From Escherichia phage EC.P1, in sequence record PQ657772.1: a stretch of 64,000 bases of DNA; one strand, given 5' to 3'. Under the pieces are notes generated by a model. It was not told the DNA's origin. It made no database searches and saw only the letters and a list, made by a program, of their open reading frames with translations. Both the position numbers and the translations under genes were made by a program. Shown piece after piece: positions 22,399-33,110 of the stretch. Position 1 is the stretch's first letter; the number at the start of each line of letters is the position of its first letter.

Positions 22399-23352
22399 TT
22401 AGAGTGAGCTTAACAGCAAATCCGCTCTGTTTGTAACTTGGCGATACCACAAGGAATTCATGATTTCTTTCTTGAACTTCTTAGGGTTATCCATTTTAAC
22501 ACTTTTCCAAAGTTTGTCAAATGTTGCCAATTTATCAACGCCCATTGTGTATGACATTTCAAACAGGATACGCTGCTGTTCTTTTGTCAGATTAACTGCA
22601 TCTTTCTTCTGCATCAATAGTGTAAAGTCCTCGTAAGTCCTTTTCATATCTTGCATTAAAAGTTTGTTGGCCTGTGCTTTGGTAATCCCGTTTCTGTACT
22701 TCATTGCATCAGAATCTTTCTTACCCAAATAATGCCCATAACCAATTGTATAATTACCTTTCATGTCCTTATAGGGATGAAATTTAGAATTGTGGAAAGG
22801 AACTCCAACTTTCCCACCAAGTAAACGTCGTTTGTTCTTGGACTGAAATTCAATAGAACCTTCAGCTTCTTTGATGTGATTGACAATTTCTGGATCTTTA
22901 TAATCAAACAGTACAGTCACATCTGGTAACAATACGTTCTTCAAATCCTCTTTTGTTGGGATAAAGATACCCTGAGAAGTATGAAGAGTTGCATTTAAGT
23001 TGATGTTCTTCAACAAAATGACATAATCTTCAATCTGTACATTTTTAGGTTTAAATTTCTGTGCAATAGAATAATAACTATCACCAGGTTGAACCGTATA
23101 ATGTTTCTCGCTGCTTGGAACTGCTTTTGGTACTGACACCTGTGGTAGTTCCTGCTTTTGAATTTGCGTAACTTGTGGTTTTAAATTATGCACCTGACTT
23201 TCGTCTAATGATGATGCACGATCACTTTGAGAAAAACCATAAAATCCAATCGCAGCGAATAGGGCTGATGAAACTAATACGCCTACGGCAATTTTAGTTT
23301 TCAGTGCTTTTTTCGCTTTTTTCAAAACGCCTCCTTTGTTGGTTGTTAACAA
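22399..23352 (-). CDS. lysozyme (T4 e-type) with N-terminal membrane anchor and LysM domain
   Basis: 317 aa; N-terminal hydrophobic segment; LysM-like YTVQPGDSYYSIAQKF; lysozyme motifs YTIGYGH and SLWYRQVTNRADLL. Confidence 0.8.
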   Translation of the reverse strand: MLTTNKGGVLKKAKKALKTKIAVGVLVSSALFAAIGFYGFSQSDRASSLDESQVHNLKPQVTQIQKQELPQVSVPKAVPSSEKHYTVQPGDSYYSIAQKFKPKNVQIEDYVILLKNINLNATLHTSQGIFIPTKEDLKNVLLPDVTVLFDYKDPEIVNHIKEAEGSIEFQSKNKRRLLGGKVGVPFHNSKFHPYKDMKGNYTIGYGHYLGKKDSDAMKYRNGITKAQANKLLMQDMKRTYEDFTLLMQKKDAVNLTKEQQRILFEMSYTMGVDKLATFDKLWKSVKMDNPKKFKKEIMNSLWYRQVTNRADLLLSSL

Positions 23353-23492
23353 TGAGCAATCACAAAGAGGGCAAAGAGGCCATTTGCAAAAGCCTCATTG
23401 GACTTTCTACAGTACTCAGTTGTTCTTTGGAACATTTAAGTAGTATAGCATACTTTTCAGTTATATCAAGACCTATTTACCAAATAACCACA

Positions 23493-23903
23493 TTAATCGT
23501 AGTATGTTCTACCAATGGTGATGTGATATTTGAAATATTTAGATGCTAAACCAAGTTCATCACGAATTTGTGCAATGAAATCATCTTCAAACTCTATGAT
23601 AAAGAATGACCCAGGTTTCTTATTGTCTTTTACTTCTTCGATGAAAGGTTCGAACTTAATCTTAACTTTCATACCATCGTACTTTTTCCAGTACTCTGGA
23701 TTTGGTGGCACTTCACCACGAACGATACTGACATGTGCTCCCCATTGTGGGTCTTTAATATCAATATGTAAGTCAGTTCTGATGAAGTACTGGTAGTAAC
23801 GAACCAACTGTAATGGAAGTTGCAGTACTAACCAGAAGTCCTTCTTCTTTTTCATAGTGCCACGATCTGGATCATACACCAGAGTTCCTTCCATTTCAAT
23901 CAT
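23493..23903 (-). CDS. hypothetical protein with two H-x-[ST]-x motifs (candidate 2H phosphoesterase)
   Basis: 136 aa; HVSI near residue 57 and HITI near residue 127, 70 aa apart. Confidence 0.4.
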   Translation of the reverse strand: MIEMEGTLVYDPDRGTMKKKKDFWLVLQLPLQLVRYYQYFIRTDLHIDIKDPQWGAHVSIVRGEVPPNPEYWKKYDGMKVKIKFEPFIEEVKDNKKPGSFFIIEFEDDFIAQIRDELGLASKYFKYHITIGRTYYD

Positions 23904-23910
23904 ATTTTAC

Positions 23911-24114
23911 CTATAAATTTACATATATGTTTTTATTTTCAATACGAACATAAGTTTCTAAAACATCTTTCGGAATTTTATTACTTGTTTTGTACCATGT
24001 AGTATTATCTACTAAAACAAAAGTTTCACCTTCAGTTTCACCAAATGTACTTAGTGCATAAATGAAGTAGTTTGGTGATGCACTACAATATACATCAGCA
24101 TTAATTTCAATCAT
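23911..24114 (-). CDS. hypothetical protein
   Basis: 67-aa ORF. Confidence 0.45.
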   Translation of the reverse strand: MIEINADVYCSASPNYFIYALSTFGETEGETFVLVDNTTWYKTSNKIPKDVLETYVRIENKNIYVNL

Positions 24115-24260
24115 ATTTTACACCACAATAAAGCTTAATACAACGAGTGTAATAAACACACCCACGATGGCAGTCATTTCTGGATTTGCATCATATGTGT
24201 ATCGGATGCACTTTAGAAAATCTTTACCAAACTTTTTTAGTCCATTCATATATTTTCCTT

Positions 24261-24617
24261 TCATTTCTTGTGTAAAGGGTCGGTACTTTCATAATAGATT
24301 GTATCATTATTTCGTTCAATAGTAAAACTCTTTTGACACAACTCTTCAGCTAAACCCTTAGCATAGTTTAATACATCTCGGTTGAGATATATTTCTTCTT
24401 TTGGGAAGCGTGGGTACTGAATAATACGAGCACACATTCCACTTTCAAGACCACCCGTGTAGATGTATTCACACGGAATCAATTGTACACAAAATCCAAG
24501 CTTGAATGCAAACTTTCGTGTGTACTCTCTTGCTGTTTGGATATCACCAGCAATATGAATATTCCAGTACTGTGTTTCAACTGTACCTTTGTCGATGTAT
24601 TTCATACTCATCTCCAA
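24261..24617 (-). CDS. hypothetical protein
   Basis: 118-aa ORF. Confidence 0.5.
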   Translation of the reverse strand: MEMSMKYIDKGTVETQYWNIHIAGDIQTAREYTRKFAFKLGFCVQLIPCEYIYTGGLESGMCARIIQYPRFPKEEIYLNRDVLNYAKGLAEELCQKSFTIERNNDTIYYESTDPLHKK

Positions 24618-24634
24618 TTATAGCATAAAAAATC

Positions 24635-31415: not shown

Positions 31416-31756
31416 AAAGTTCGATAAGTGATAATTTCTTCTCTGGTAACAGAAACTTCATAGCACTTAACACCATCAGTTTCATTTCTGAATGGTTCTG
31501 CTGGTCTATCTTCTGTTAAACCTCGTTCATACGTACAATGATAATATTTGTTCGTGTTCATGTCAAGAAAAACTAGATCAAATTCTTCTGTCCATCGTCT
31601 ATGCCCTTTACTTTCATTACTAATGATTTTGTACTTAACATCGGGATTGAATGATTCAGTACTGTCATCCCATGTACCATAGTCAGTATATTCATCATCT
31701 TCATCTAACTCTGCCAGATGCCACATTAACTGCGGTAAAAAGATTTTAGATTTCAT
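31400..31756 (-). CDS. hypothetical protein
   Basis: 118-aa ORF; GGAG RBS. Confidence 0.5.
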   Translation of the reverse strand: MKSKIFLPQLMWHLAELDEDDEYTDYGTWDDSTESFNPDVKYKIISNESKGHRRWTEEFDLVFLDMNTNKYYHCTYERGLTEDRPAEPFRNETDGVKCYEVSVTREEIITYRTLWKYL

Positions 31757-31767
31757 TTATTTTCTCC

Positions 31768-31799
31768 AAAAAAATAGGGACTCGATTTCTCAAGTCCCT
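31768..31799 (-). terminator. rho-independent terminator
   Basis: Plus A-run then AGGGACT...AGTCCCT hairpin. Confidence 0.5.
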
Positions 31800-31810
31800 A
31801 TCATAACATA

Positions 31811-32422
31811 TTAATTGTGATTATTCAATTTCTTTTGTTCTTTTTTTAGAGCTTTCATATGTCGTCCAAAATCACGAACATGCCATATATGGTCGGTTTC
31901 CCATAGTTCTGTACGTAAACGGCGTTCTTCCAATTCTTCTGGCGTAGGAATTTTAGATTTCTTCTTATCTTTATTGAAAAAATCATTCATATGTTCTTCC
32001 AGTAGATTTCTACCCTTAACTTTTTCCAGGAATTCATCTACTGATTCAGTTTTATTAGAACGAAGACTGTTACAACGTGAACACATGGTGTTGTAATTTG
32101 ACTCTAAATCAGGTCCACCCTTAGATGCTAGTTGGTTATGATCTACTGTCATCAGTACTTCATATAGACCACAAACTGCATAGACATTTAAGTGAGGTTT
32201 ACCATATACCGGATCAGTGCTATGTGAACGCTCAATGCGAACTTCAGTGGCTTCAATACCACACGCAACGCATTTACGATTCTTAACGAATGTAAGTACT
32301 TTTTGTGGGAAGTATCGGAAAGTAACACCGTTATATGTATAGCGTTTCATCTGCGTACTTCTTTGATTTAACTCATCAAGAAGTGATAGTTTGGCAACAT
32401 AGTAGACCTGATATTTTGACAT
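31811..32422 (-). CDS. HNH endonuclease-like protein
   Basis: 203 aa; CVAC...DHN...C.RCN arrangement. Confidence 0.5.
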   Translation of the reverse strand: MSKYQVYYVAKLSLLDELNQRSTQMKRYTYNGVTFRYFPQKVLTFVKNRKCVACGIEATEVRIERSHSTDPVYGKPHLNVYAVCGLYEVLMTVDHNQLASKGGPDLESNYNTMCSRCNSLRSNKTESVDEFLEKVKGRNLLEEHMNDFFNKDKKKSKIPTPEELEERRLRTELWETDHIWHVRDFGRHMKALKKEQKKLNNHN

Positions 32423-32424
32423 TT

Positions 32425-32739
32425 TTAATCCTCGGATTTAATTTTAACCTTAACATCTTGATTTTGTAAATCACGAATAGTTTTAATTAATGCATCATGT
32501 TTTAGTGCACAGTCATTGTACATTGCATCCCATTTTGCAAGTACTGCGAGAATTTCAGCACCATCATATCCTCTGAACCCATTTTTATCGACCATGATCT
32601 TACTTGGTAGTGGTGTGTTTTCATCACAACGTTCAAGTAAGATTTCTTGTTCTACAATTGGCTTAGGTTGATACTTAATTTCTTCAGCACAACCACTAAT
32701 TAATAGAAAAGAAATTGCAAATACTAAAGCGTATTTCAT
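32425..32739 (-). CDS. lipoprotein, o-spanin-like (outer-membrane spanin candidate)
   Basis: 104 aa; signal peptide with lipobox LISGC; 4-nt overlap with upstream membrane protein gene. Confidence 0.45.
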   Translation of the reverse strand: MKYALVFAISFLLISGCAEEIKYQPKPIVEQEILLERCDENTPLPSKIMVDKNGFRGYDGAEILAVLAKWDAMYNDCALKHDALIKTIRDLQNQDVKVKIKSED

Positions 32740-33110
32740 TTGAATTTATTCCTCGCTGCAAGGGAATTCTGTTTAAGTTCATTCAGAAGTTTAACGCCAT
32801 CTTCATCTAGACATACGTTTTTGTAAACTTCTCTTTCTACTATAATAGGCACTTGTGTCTCGATAACTTTAGCATTATCTTGCATTATCTTTTTGGTTTC
32901 TATATAGTTTTTTGCATTTTCTTGCTGCATCTTAGCGAGTGCAGAATCAACTTTCTTTTCTATTTTTTGGTCAATACTTTCTTTATAACCAGTATAATAA
33001 GTATTTGCTGACCATCCACCGTAAACACAACCTGCCATTACTCCTACTACCAAAATTGGTTTCCAATATGGTATTAAAACTTTTGAAACAATAATTTCTA
33101 GTACACTCAT
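32736..33110 (-). CDS. i-spanin-like protein (N-terminal TM helix plus coiled coil)
   Basis: 124 aa; single N-terminal TM, helical remainder; coupled to the lipoprotein gene. Confidence 0.45.
   Translation of the reverse strand: MSVLEIIVSKVLIPYWKPILVVGVMAGCVYGGWSANTYYTGYKESIDQKIEKKVDSALAKMQQENAKNYIETKKIMQDNAKVIETQVPIIVEREVYKNVCLDEDGVKLLNELKQNSLAARNKFK

Follow-up and report, generated by a model that had tools for sequence, protein, structure and literature searches.

The lysozyme considered in this report belongs to the family of CBB_187 from Pectobacterium phage CBB, which was presented as a predicted endolysin by Buttimer et al. 2017 (PMC5259590), with GAP32 gp180, 121Q gp532, and RaK2 gp506 as its named homologues. 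According to that investigation, the protein consists of an N-terminal transmembrane domain (TMD), a LysM-like middle region, for which hits from both InterPro and HHpred were reported, and a C-terminal lysozyme (PMC5259590). The authors pointed to the signal-arrest-release (SAR) endolysins, and they stated that induction of CBB_187 inhibits the growth of E. coli ("data not shown" in the source; PMC5259590). Presented here is an analysis of a 64,000-nucleotide stretch of DNA from Escherichia phage EC.P1 (sequence record PQ657772.1), hereafter referred to as the window, which encodes a lysozyme of this family and a pair of predicted spanins.

As judged by sequence identity, the source of the window is an Asteriusvirus jumbo coliphage belonging to the Rak2-like group of ∼350-kb myoviruses. 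The 12-kb region around the lysis genes is 99.6% identical to that of Escherichia phage fEgEco12 and 86-99% identical to those of other Asteriusvirus jumbo coliphages such as CMSTMSU, PBECO4, 121Q, and phAPEC6. The minus strand holds almost all of the window genes, and every gene named in an initial annotation of this DNA was found there at the position assigned to it.

The explanation favored here, and held with moderate confidence, is that of a T4-style scattered lysis system in which an anchored, exported endolysin and a pair of inner-membrane (i-) and outer-membrane (o-) spanins are encoded in the window, and a T-type holin candidate is encoded elsewhere in the genome. Attention had been drawn in the initial annotation to the dispersal of the lysis genes. 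The dispersal is real, with ∼9.1 kb between the lysozyme and the spanins, but it is the normal state in T4, where e is located at 66.5 kb, rIII at 130.8 kb, the spanin genes at 135.1-135.8 kb, and t at 160.2 kb. Scattered lysis genes are thus to be expected in a T4-related phage, and the gap in the window is unremarkable.

Both the anchored LysM-lysozyme and the spanin pair are genuine, yet they have already been described or annotated for the Rak2-like group. Indeed, the anatomy and the main interpretation offered in the initial annotation had been published for the CBB_187 family. The finding is correct but largely ordinary, because its features were described for a known group of giant phages and its genes are scattered in the manner of T4. 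Its consequences are modest, in that a T4-like scattered set of lysis genes is confirmed for this jumbo coliphage. The only item without an earlier report noticed here is the conserved leader of the LysM-lysozyme gene.

The LysM-lysozyme and the leader of its gene

The features of the lysozyme gene and of its leader are listed below, with the type of evidence in parentheses.

22399-23325, minus strand: LysM-GH24 lysozyme gene, TTG start, 308 amino acids (open reading frame, start codon, Pfam and PHROG matches, structure model)
23230-23292, minus strand: predicted N-terminal transmembrane/signal-anchor segment IAVGVLVSSALFAAIGFYGFS, residues 12-32 (composition, hydrophobicity, conservation)
22963-23103, minus strand: LysM peptidoglycan-binding domain, residues 75-121 (partial Pfam match and AlphaFold2 fold)
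22408-22893, minus strand: GH24 T4-type muramidase domain, residues 145-306 (Pfam, alignment, AlphaFold2 model, fold match)
23326-23469, minus strand: leader of the lysozyme gene (promoter, motif, and hairpin conserved among relatives)
23469-23442, minus strand: sigma70-like promoter TTGATA-N16-TATACT (cross-genus conservation)
23410-23399, minus strand: invariant motif GTAGAAAGTCCA (alignment of leaders)
23396-23376, minus strand: hairpin GAGGC/GCCTC with the loop TTTTGCAAATG (covariation)

The longest open reading frame for the lysozyme extends over 22399-23352(-). Translation probably begins within it at the TTG at 23325, four nucleotides past an AAGGAGG sequence; this start, which is also the one given in public records, results in a protein of 308 amino acid residues. 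The protein matches the Pfam profile Phage_lysozyme (PF00959) at 2.9e-11 with a score of 44.2 bits against a cut-off of 22.3. It falls into a PHROG of its own, phrog_15410 (1.9e-162), and it also matches the endolysin and hub-lysozyme PHROGs. The Pfam match to LysM is marginal (2.4e-4, 21.4 bits versus a cut-off of 20.9) and partial, covering profile positions 1-17 of 43; a precomputed hit to PF01476 is carried by two lysozyme homologues. A search of 5.8 billion proteins revealed 66 clusters of the same length class (∼300-320 residues, 43-99% identity), many of which come from jumbo-phage genomes, as is evident from contigs measuring up to ∼350 kb. The anchored lysozyme is conserved in all 70 of the Rak2-like records found, and residues 14-308 of the window protein are 100% identical to fEgEco12 Gp275.

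The AlphaFold2 model of the lysozyme is confident from residue 73 onward, with residues 1-72 predicted at low confidence. The middle region adopts the β-α-α-β fold of a LysM domain, formed by a strand at 75-77, helices at 84-91 and 98-108, and a second strand at 119-121, with predicted local distance difference test (pLDDT) values of 84-89. A linker of 23 residues joins it to the lysozyme domain, for which the pLDDT is >85. The top Foldseek matches in the Protein Data Bank (PDB) are to T4 lysozyme (E ∼1e-6, target-normalised TM-score of 0.62-0.66), and a PDB search with the family profile finds chains of T4 lysozyme at ∼1e-12. Residues E155, D187, and T193 are invariant in 65 aligned homologues. 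In alignment with T4 lysozyme, D187 corresponds to D20 and T193 to T26, and E155 closes the first helix as does E11; the Glu-Asp spacing of the catalytic triad is ∼23 residues longer than in the T4 enzyme. On the basis of the profile threshold, the Glu/Asp/Thr triad, and the modeled fold, the C-terminal domain is a GH24, or T4-type, lysozyme with predicted muramidase activity, and the profile match and β-α-α-β fold of the model likewise identify the middle region as a LysM domain. The T4-type lysozyme with an N-terminal hydrophobic segment and a LysM domain that was proposed in the initial annotation is thus borne out by Pfam, by the AlphaFold2 model, and by the 21-residue segment described next.

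The polypeptide chain begins with MKKAKKALKTK, which contains six lysines, and continues through the 21-residue uncharged segment IAVGVLVSSALFAAIGFYGFS into an acidic, Ser-rich stretch. A hydrophobic segment is present in 65 of the 65 homologues compared. These topology signals predict a type II signal anchor with an N-in/C-out orientation, which would leave the LysM and lysozyme domains on the periplasmic side. Gly, Ala, and Ser make up 48% of the segment, and its approximate Hessa dG is +1.15 kcal/mol, with a family median of -0.21; by the same scoring it is similar to the SAR segments of P1 Lyz (+0.46) and R21 (+0.78) and weaker than the anchor of lambda Rz (-2.46). The hydrophobicity scale is crude and scores the TMD of the i-spanin as weak too. 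The composition is SAR-like, and, given the crude scale, the score is read as compatible with a SAR segment but short of proof.

The SAR endolysins are reportedly exported by Sec with no need of a holin channel, as Xu et al. are said to have described in 2004. Several observations weigh against placing the window enzyme among them. The 308-residue sequence contains no cysteine, and control by Cys caging, as in P1 Lyz, does not fit. In the AlphaFold2 model the distance from the anchor to the catalytic domain is ∼110 residues, taken up by a ∼40-residue low-confidence linker, the LysM domain, and a second linker. One defining feature of the class, namely a segment that is contiguous with the catalytic domain and forms part of its control, by Cys caging in P1 Lyz or by refolding in R21, is missing here, and the enzyme falls short of strict SAR membership. 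Of the two roles offered by the initial annotation, SAR or tail-associated, an exported and anchored endolysin is plausible and has been published, whereas the tail role is disfavored by four virion proteomes, as discussed below. Neither of the known SAR control mechanisms fits this membrane-tethered, LysM-bearing muramidase of a phage with a Gram-negative host, and the conserved leader provides a concrete handle on how the enzyme is restrained.

The leader of the lysozyme gene is under selection, as indicated by sequence comparison across the Rak2-like group. A sigma70-type promoter is located 120-199 nucleotides upstream of the lysozyme start in 18 of the 18 loci examined; it reads TTGACA-N17-TAAAAT or a close variant in 11 of them and TTGATA-N16-TATACT in the window. 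Note that a single-sequence scan of the window for sigma70 promoters performs at chance level (69 sites versus 67.6 expected), and the weight of this promoter thus comes from its cross-genus conservation only. Downstream of the promoter, the pattern GTAGAAAGTCCA...CTTTKTGCAAA is invariant in Rak2-like leaders, with a single copy in the window. Among 2.9 million viral contigs the pattern has 17 matches, 12 of which are positioned 75-95 nucleotides before the lysozyme gene, once per ∼350-kb genome; the other five are chance hairpins in unrelated contigs. In Rak2-like genomes the motif invariably precedes the lysozyme gene by 75-100 nucleotides. A hairpin with a conserved loop and covarying stems (GAGGC/GCCUC, GCGAC/GUCGC, and GUGGC/GCCAC) is present in 13 of the 18 leaders, and no family in Rfam matched the leader. 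Of 22 Rak2-like loci, 20 begin the lysozyme gene with a TTG or GTG codon that immediately follows a strong Shine-Dalgarno (SD) sequence, and this weak start has been kept across genera whose lysozymes are only about 50% identical.

In the minimum-energy folds of nine leaders, the SD sequence is at least partly paired with an upstream complement, the sequence of which varies by clade. Exceptional stability of the structure is seen for CBB, GAP32, Yersinia fHe-Yen9-04, locus L027, and RaK2 (z of -3.5 to -5.7) but not for the window leader (z = -0.3) or that of 121Q (z = -1.6). Sequestration of the SD sequence as a distinctive trait of the window leader was considered and dropped: with z = -0.3 and an SD pairing probability of 0.46, which is below the median of 0.60 for 67 window genes, masking is not claimed for it.

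The leader probably throttles or times the expression of a toxic exported enzyme, and in this respect it recalls T4 gene e, in the early transcripts of which a hairpin blocks translation. Because its promoter is of the sigma70 type and not of the late type, the lysozyme may be made early, which counts against the endolysin reading; the papers on phages PA5oct, Atu_ph07, and Munch contain no information on its timing or function. It is conceivable, although unlikely, that the anchored LysM-lysozyme, instead of duplicating the endolysin, is a separately timed lysis effector with a conserved host-type promoter active early, its translation being gated by a single-copy leader element, such that two endolysins operate under one T-type holin. 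The gating element may consist of the GTAGAAAGTCCA...CUUUKUGCAAA motif, the covarying hairpin, the anti-SD pairing, and the weak TTG/GTG start. If this is true, Rak2-like jumbo phages would employ one soluble holin-released endolysin and one exported translation-gated endolysin, and the leader would represent a novel element in the control of lysis, either a cis-regulatory RNA or a protein-binding site.

With respect to the surroundings of the lysozyme gene, a gene for an HPF/RaiA ribosome-hibernation factor (22050-22382(-), Pfam 1.6e-10) lies 16 nucleotides beyond it, with a hairpin at 22014-22041 coming next. Annotations of Xanthomonas phages XbC2 and XaC1 likewise show the two genes side by side, and in EJP2 and Hallingskeid a gene of about HPF/RaiA size comes next after the lysozyme gene. 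Upstream lies a 2H-phosphoesterase gene (23493-23903(-)), the product of which has a 2H-SAK match below the Pfam threshold and is called Acb1-like (anti-CBASS) by HHpred in the fEgEco12 supplement. Of the 17 Rak2-like loci compared, 16 have a 2H-phosphoesterase gene near the lysozyme gene and one lacks upstream sequence; no other window gene, apart from the lysozyme gene itself, showed this distribution.

The spanin pair and its transcription unit

The second group of lysis genes in the window is organized as a single predicted unit.

33138-33144, minus strand: CTAAATA, a T4-late-promoter-like motif (first base 34 nucleotides upstream of the i-spanin start codon)
32736-33110, minus strand: predicted i-spanin, 124 amino acids, with an N-terminal TMD, a periplasmic helical domain, and a near-C-terminal Cys (PHROG, context, alignment)
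32425-32739, minus strand: predicted o-spanin, 104 amino acids, an outer-membrane lipoprotein precursor with the lipobox LISGC and Ala at +2 (lipobox, conserved Cys, overlap)
31811-32422, minus strand: HNH endonuclease gene, last of the spanin transcription unit (Pfam HNH 7.7e-6, phrog_23285 9e-114)
31773-31802, minus strand: terminator-like hairpin, a 13-bp stem followed by a T run, closing the spanin-HNH unit (hairpin scan)

A spanin-like pair next to an HNH gene and ∼10 kb from the lysozyme had been proposed in the initial annotation, and the match to phrog_1152, the lipobox, and the ATGA overlap confirm it, at a distance of ∼9.1 kb. The i-spanin matches phrog_1152, "Rz-like spanin," at 1.2e-27, and its stop codon and the start codon of the o-spanin share the ATGA. 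Its near-C-terminal cysteine is kept in eight of nine aligned sequences. In seven relatives of the o-spanin, with 38-71% identity to the window protein, G16-C17, C38, and C77 are invariant, and the residue at +2 is A, N, S, or G. Because this residue is never Asp, sorting to the outer membrane is expected. The CBB orthologue of the lipoprotein, CBB_165, is LipoP-positive (CBB supplement, PMC5259590). Distant homologues of the i-spanin occur in lysis cassettes: in Acinetobacter phage fLi-Aba03 the gene comes immediately after those for holin and lysozyme, and in Pseudomonas phage DDSR119 it follows the endolysin gene and has an embedded second open reading frame. The pair is annotated as i-spanin/o-spanin in K64-1 (RefSeq) and in Munch. 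Taken together, the PHROG match, the lipobox, the cysteines, the overlap, the lysis-cassette context, the annotation in K64-1 and Munch, and the late-like promoter motif make the identity of the pair as a two-component spanin well supported at the sequence level, with its role in lysis predicted.

One set of data weighs against this assignment. The RaK2 orthologues of the spanins, ORF010/ORF011, were flagged as virion-associated by mass spectrometry (CBB supplement, PMC5259590), and the CBB spanin genes were labeled "structural protein" on the basis of that detection (PMC5259590). The presence of the RaK2 proteins in virions is probably a matter of membrane carry-over.

A different label, that of a T5 Llp-like "lytic conversion lipoprotein," is attached to the o-spanin in fEgEco12; it was dropped because the o-spanin gene overlaps that of an Rz-like i-spanin and the cysteines of its product are conserved. 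The same label, from a weak HHpred hit to T5 Llp, is given in the fEgEco12 supplement to a second small predicted lipoprotein of the window, an 82-residue protein (48824-49072(-)) with a signal ending in TLCGC.

The gene order i-spanin, o-spanin, HNH is kept in Asteriusvirus, Alcyoneusvirus (K64-1), Munch, and Eneladusvirus (Yersinia fHe-Yen9-04), and the HNH gene is absent after the spanins in Mimasvirus (CBB, GAP32). Given the conservation of its position across those groups, the HNH gene is an old resident of the spanin operon rather than a recent insertion. In Munch, a terminator is annotated at the same place after the spanin-HNH unit.

The motif before the i-spanin gene belongs to a larger set. 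The sequence [AC]TAAATA occurs 15 times on the coding strand of the window and twice on the other strand, and 10 copies precede a start codon by 34-57 nucleotides, as is the case for the tail sheath, tail tube, neck, and i-spanin genes (example sites on the minus strand are 14171, 11105, 10328, 16041, 42983, and 33144). The TAAATA before the i-spanin gene is kept at the same place in seven relatives. The T4 late octamer TATAAATA, by comparison, has no copies in the window versus 8.9 ± 3.2 expected. The window motif agrees with ATAAATA, the late-promoter motif proposed for CBB (PMC5259590), and on these sequence grounds [AC]TAAATA is likely to be the late-promoter core of the Rak2-like phage group.

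Lysis model and competing explanations

The statement in the initial annotation that no holin was recognized is true for the window, where no protein matches a holin family in Pfam or PHROG. A candidate of the T4 T type is, however, encoded ∼128 kb from the lysozyme gene in fEgEco12 (g406, product Gp406c, 246852-247514). It was annotated as a holin by the fEgEco12 authors from an HHpred match to the T4 holin T/RI complex (probability 89.9%). The ∼220-residue g406 protein and its 239-residue relatives contain one N-terminal TMD and a large periplasmic domain. Its match to a PHROG holin family is weak (6e-4), as is the hhalign match of its family to T4 T (E = 0.013), in which the TMDs are in register; there was no Pfam hit for the protein and no PDB sequence hit with the candidate profile. 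The top PDB match of its AlphaFold2 model (pLDDT 83.8) is the periplasmic domain of T4 holin T, 6PXE_F, with E = 1.7e-6 and a target-normalised TM-score of 0.63, and GAF domains score nearly equally. Assignment of g406 as a T4 T-type holin candidate located outside the window is thus reasonable on sequence and model evidence. Beside it, at 246175-247514 for g404-g406, the g405 (99 residues) and g404 (112 residues) proteins match the N- and C-terminal halves of a single 218-residue PHROG related to g406, and they look like a split tandem paralogue of it.

Three small membrane proteins are encoded near the lysozyme gene: one of 74 residues with two apparent hydrophobic segments (25514-25738(-)), one of 48 residues with a C-terminal TMD (24118-24264(-)), and one of 67 residues with an N-terminal TMD (20863-21066(-)). 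Among the loci compared, they were detected only in Asteriusvirus 121Q. As conserved holin partners they were considered and dropped, being members of PHROGs of unknown function that are confined to Asteriusvirus and are not beside the lysozyme in other genera, although any of them may still be a holin.

The LysM-lysozyme is the sole lysozyme of the 64-kb window; when T4 E, LysUE1, the hub protein, and the candidate holin were used as tblastn queries, only this gene was hit, and no second lysozyme or holin was found there. Beyond the view of the initial annotation, Asteriusvirus genomes encode, outside the window, an 887-residue gp5-like hub protein with a C-terminal GH24 domain and, beside it, a 162-residue soluble T4 e-like GH24 lysozyme. 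The 162-residue protein shares 53% identity with the hub lysozyme domain and 34% with the catalytic domain of the LysM-lysozyme, which is in turn 29% identical to the hub C-terminal domain. The LysM-lysozyme and the 162-residue lysozyme are therefore two candidate endolysins in one genome. In practical terms it matters which GH24 domain of the three serves as the true endolysin: Asteriusviruses are under development for therapy, and one of their lysozymes has already been purified as an enzybiotic.

In the model favored here, the LysM-lysozyme would enter the inner membrane by way of an uncleaved N-terminal signal anchor, with its N-terminus in the cytoplasm and its LysM and GH24 domains in the periplasm, and would build up there tethered on a flexible linker of ∼40 residues. 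Its synthesis is probably held low by the TTG start and the long structured leader. Once the holin, presumably the T4 T-type candidate ∼128 kb away, collapses the membrane potential, the enzyme would degrade the cell wall, acting either after release of its weakly hydrophobic anchor, in a SAR-like manner, or while still tethered. The i-spanin, in the inner membrane, and the o-spanin, as an outer-membrane lipoprotein, would be transcribed from the late-type promoter with the HNH gene as a passenger, and they would bridge the periplasm and fuse both membranes once the wall is gone.

A possible, if doubtful, alternative is that the real endolysin is the soluble 162-residue lysozyme, released by way of the T-type holin, and that the anchored LysM-lysozyme is an accessory, perhaps a lysin that backs up or boosts lysis or an early membrane-tethered wall-remodeling enzyme. 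It is the main rival to the favored model. LysUE1, the copy of the 162-residue lysozyme from UE-S1, has been purified and lyses E. coli with EDTA. No virion detection is recorded in the CBB text or supplement for its CBB orthologue, CBB_239 (PMC5259590). The holin T of T4 releases a soluble endolysin, and a lysozyme that is muralytic in vitro and not found in virions, together with a T-type holin candidate, would already amount to a complete T4-like system. The LysM-lysozyme, moreover, has a conserved sigma70-type promoter in place of the late motif and lacks the SAR control features. On the other hand, the gene for the 162-residue lysozyme is located within the baseplate module, between the genes for the gp5-like hub and a gp25-like protein; this position and the 53% identity to the hub domain suggest that the enzyme may be tail-related and simply missed by mass spectrometry. 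Furthermore, the anchored enzyme is kept in all 70 Rak2-like records found and is reported to be toxic on expression, as a lysis effector would be. The endolysin roles of the two lysozymes are not mutually exclusive.

It is quite improbable that the N-terminal segment is cleaved off as a Sec signal peptide and that the LysM-lysozyme is a soluble periplasmic endolysin, restrained by the energized membrane or by low synthesis, in likeness to the secreted endolysin Lys44 of Oenococcus phage fOg44. Such an arrangement would be in keeping with the signal-peptide-like N-termini of distant GH24 relatives in smaller viral contigs, which have no LysM domain, and with the lactococcal P335-type endolysins, in which a TMD and a signal peptidase site occur together with LysM domains. 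The 21-residue uncharged segment is, however, long for the h-region of a signal peptide, and no small-x-small cleavage motif was seen after it by eye.

Least credible of all is a role as a virion (tail or baseplate) lysozyme for wall penetration at infection, to which the match of the catalytic domain to the hub lysozyme PHROG (6.4e-20) would lend itself, given the positive-inside N-terminal signal anchor, the location of the gene among non-structural genes, and the lack of detection in phAPEC6, CBB, GAP32, and RaK2 virions. In phAPEC6, mass spectrometry detected the 95.9-kDa gp5-like hub lysozyme gp241, the counterpart of the 887-residue protein, but not the orthologue gp293, and CBB_187 carries no virion detection flag in CBB, GAP32, or RaK2 (CBB supplement, PMC5259590). 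The refuting outcome named in the initial annotation, a lysozyme found as a structural component of the virion, was not seen in these proteomes. An N-in/C-out anchor would route the enzyme to the periplasm, away from the cytoplasmic assembly of tails, and with an export signal and no detection in four virion proteomes a virion role is unlikely. The label "tail lysozyme," which the Munch, SE_PL, and Muenster records give to the gene for the anchored enzyme, is thereby corrected.

Comparison with known lysis systems

As in the SAR endolysins P1 Lyz and R21 of phage 21, the window enzyme combines a GH24 domain with a basic N-terminus and a weakly hydrophobic Gly/Ala/Ser-rich segment, and it too would be exported by Sec independently of a holin channel. 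It differs from them in that this segment is set apart from the catalytic domain by linkers and the LysM domain, in that there is no cysteine for disulfide caging, and in that no pinholin was found, the holin candidate being of the T type. The lactococcal P335-group endolysins, such as LysTP712 with its TMD, GH25 domain, and two LysM domains, are likewise exported, and in them too LysM domains are joined to a transmembrane or signal segment at the N-terminus. They belong to phages of Gram-positive hosts, however, their catalytic domain is of family GH25 rather than GH24, and their LysM domains are C-terminal and doubled, with a signal peptidase site predicted.

The spanin pair resembles the Rz/Rz1 type of phage lambda in its combination of a type II inner-membrane protein with a small outer-membrane lipoprotein, in its periplasmic cysteines, and in the location of its homologues within holin-endolysin cassettes. 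Whereas Rz1 of lambda is embedded in Rz, the spanin genes of the window are separate apart from the overlap of four nucleotides, and they lie apart from the genes for endolysin and holin, followed instead by the HNH gene.

With respect to T4, differences are apparent in the membrane-anchored LysM-lysozyme, which T4 lacks, in the hub lysozyme domain, which is central in T4 and C-terminal here, and in the exact T4 late octamer, which is absent from this window. The T4 spanins PseT.3 and PseT.2 have no detectable homology to those of the window beyond the lipobox: hhalign of the family alignments gave E = 0.37 for PseT.3, with no sequence homology detectable, and E = 0.0035 for PseT.2, arising from the lipobox only. 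In both phages, nevertheless, the lysis genes are scattered (in T4, tens of kilobases apart), a soluble e-like lysozyme is paralogous to the hub lysozyme, and the T-type holin of T4 has a candidate counterpart here. The spanins of both are encoded by adjacent genes with an overlap of four nucleotides and are similar in size (117/99 residues in T4 and 124/104 in the window). The nearest likeness is to the CBB_187 family of predicted endolysins, with 47-99% identity, the same TMD-LysM-lysozyme order, SAR-type export suggested, and a TTG start in CBB as here; nothing material differs, and the window enzyme is a close orthologue.

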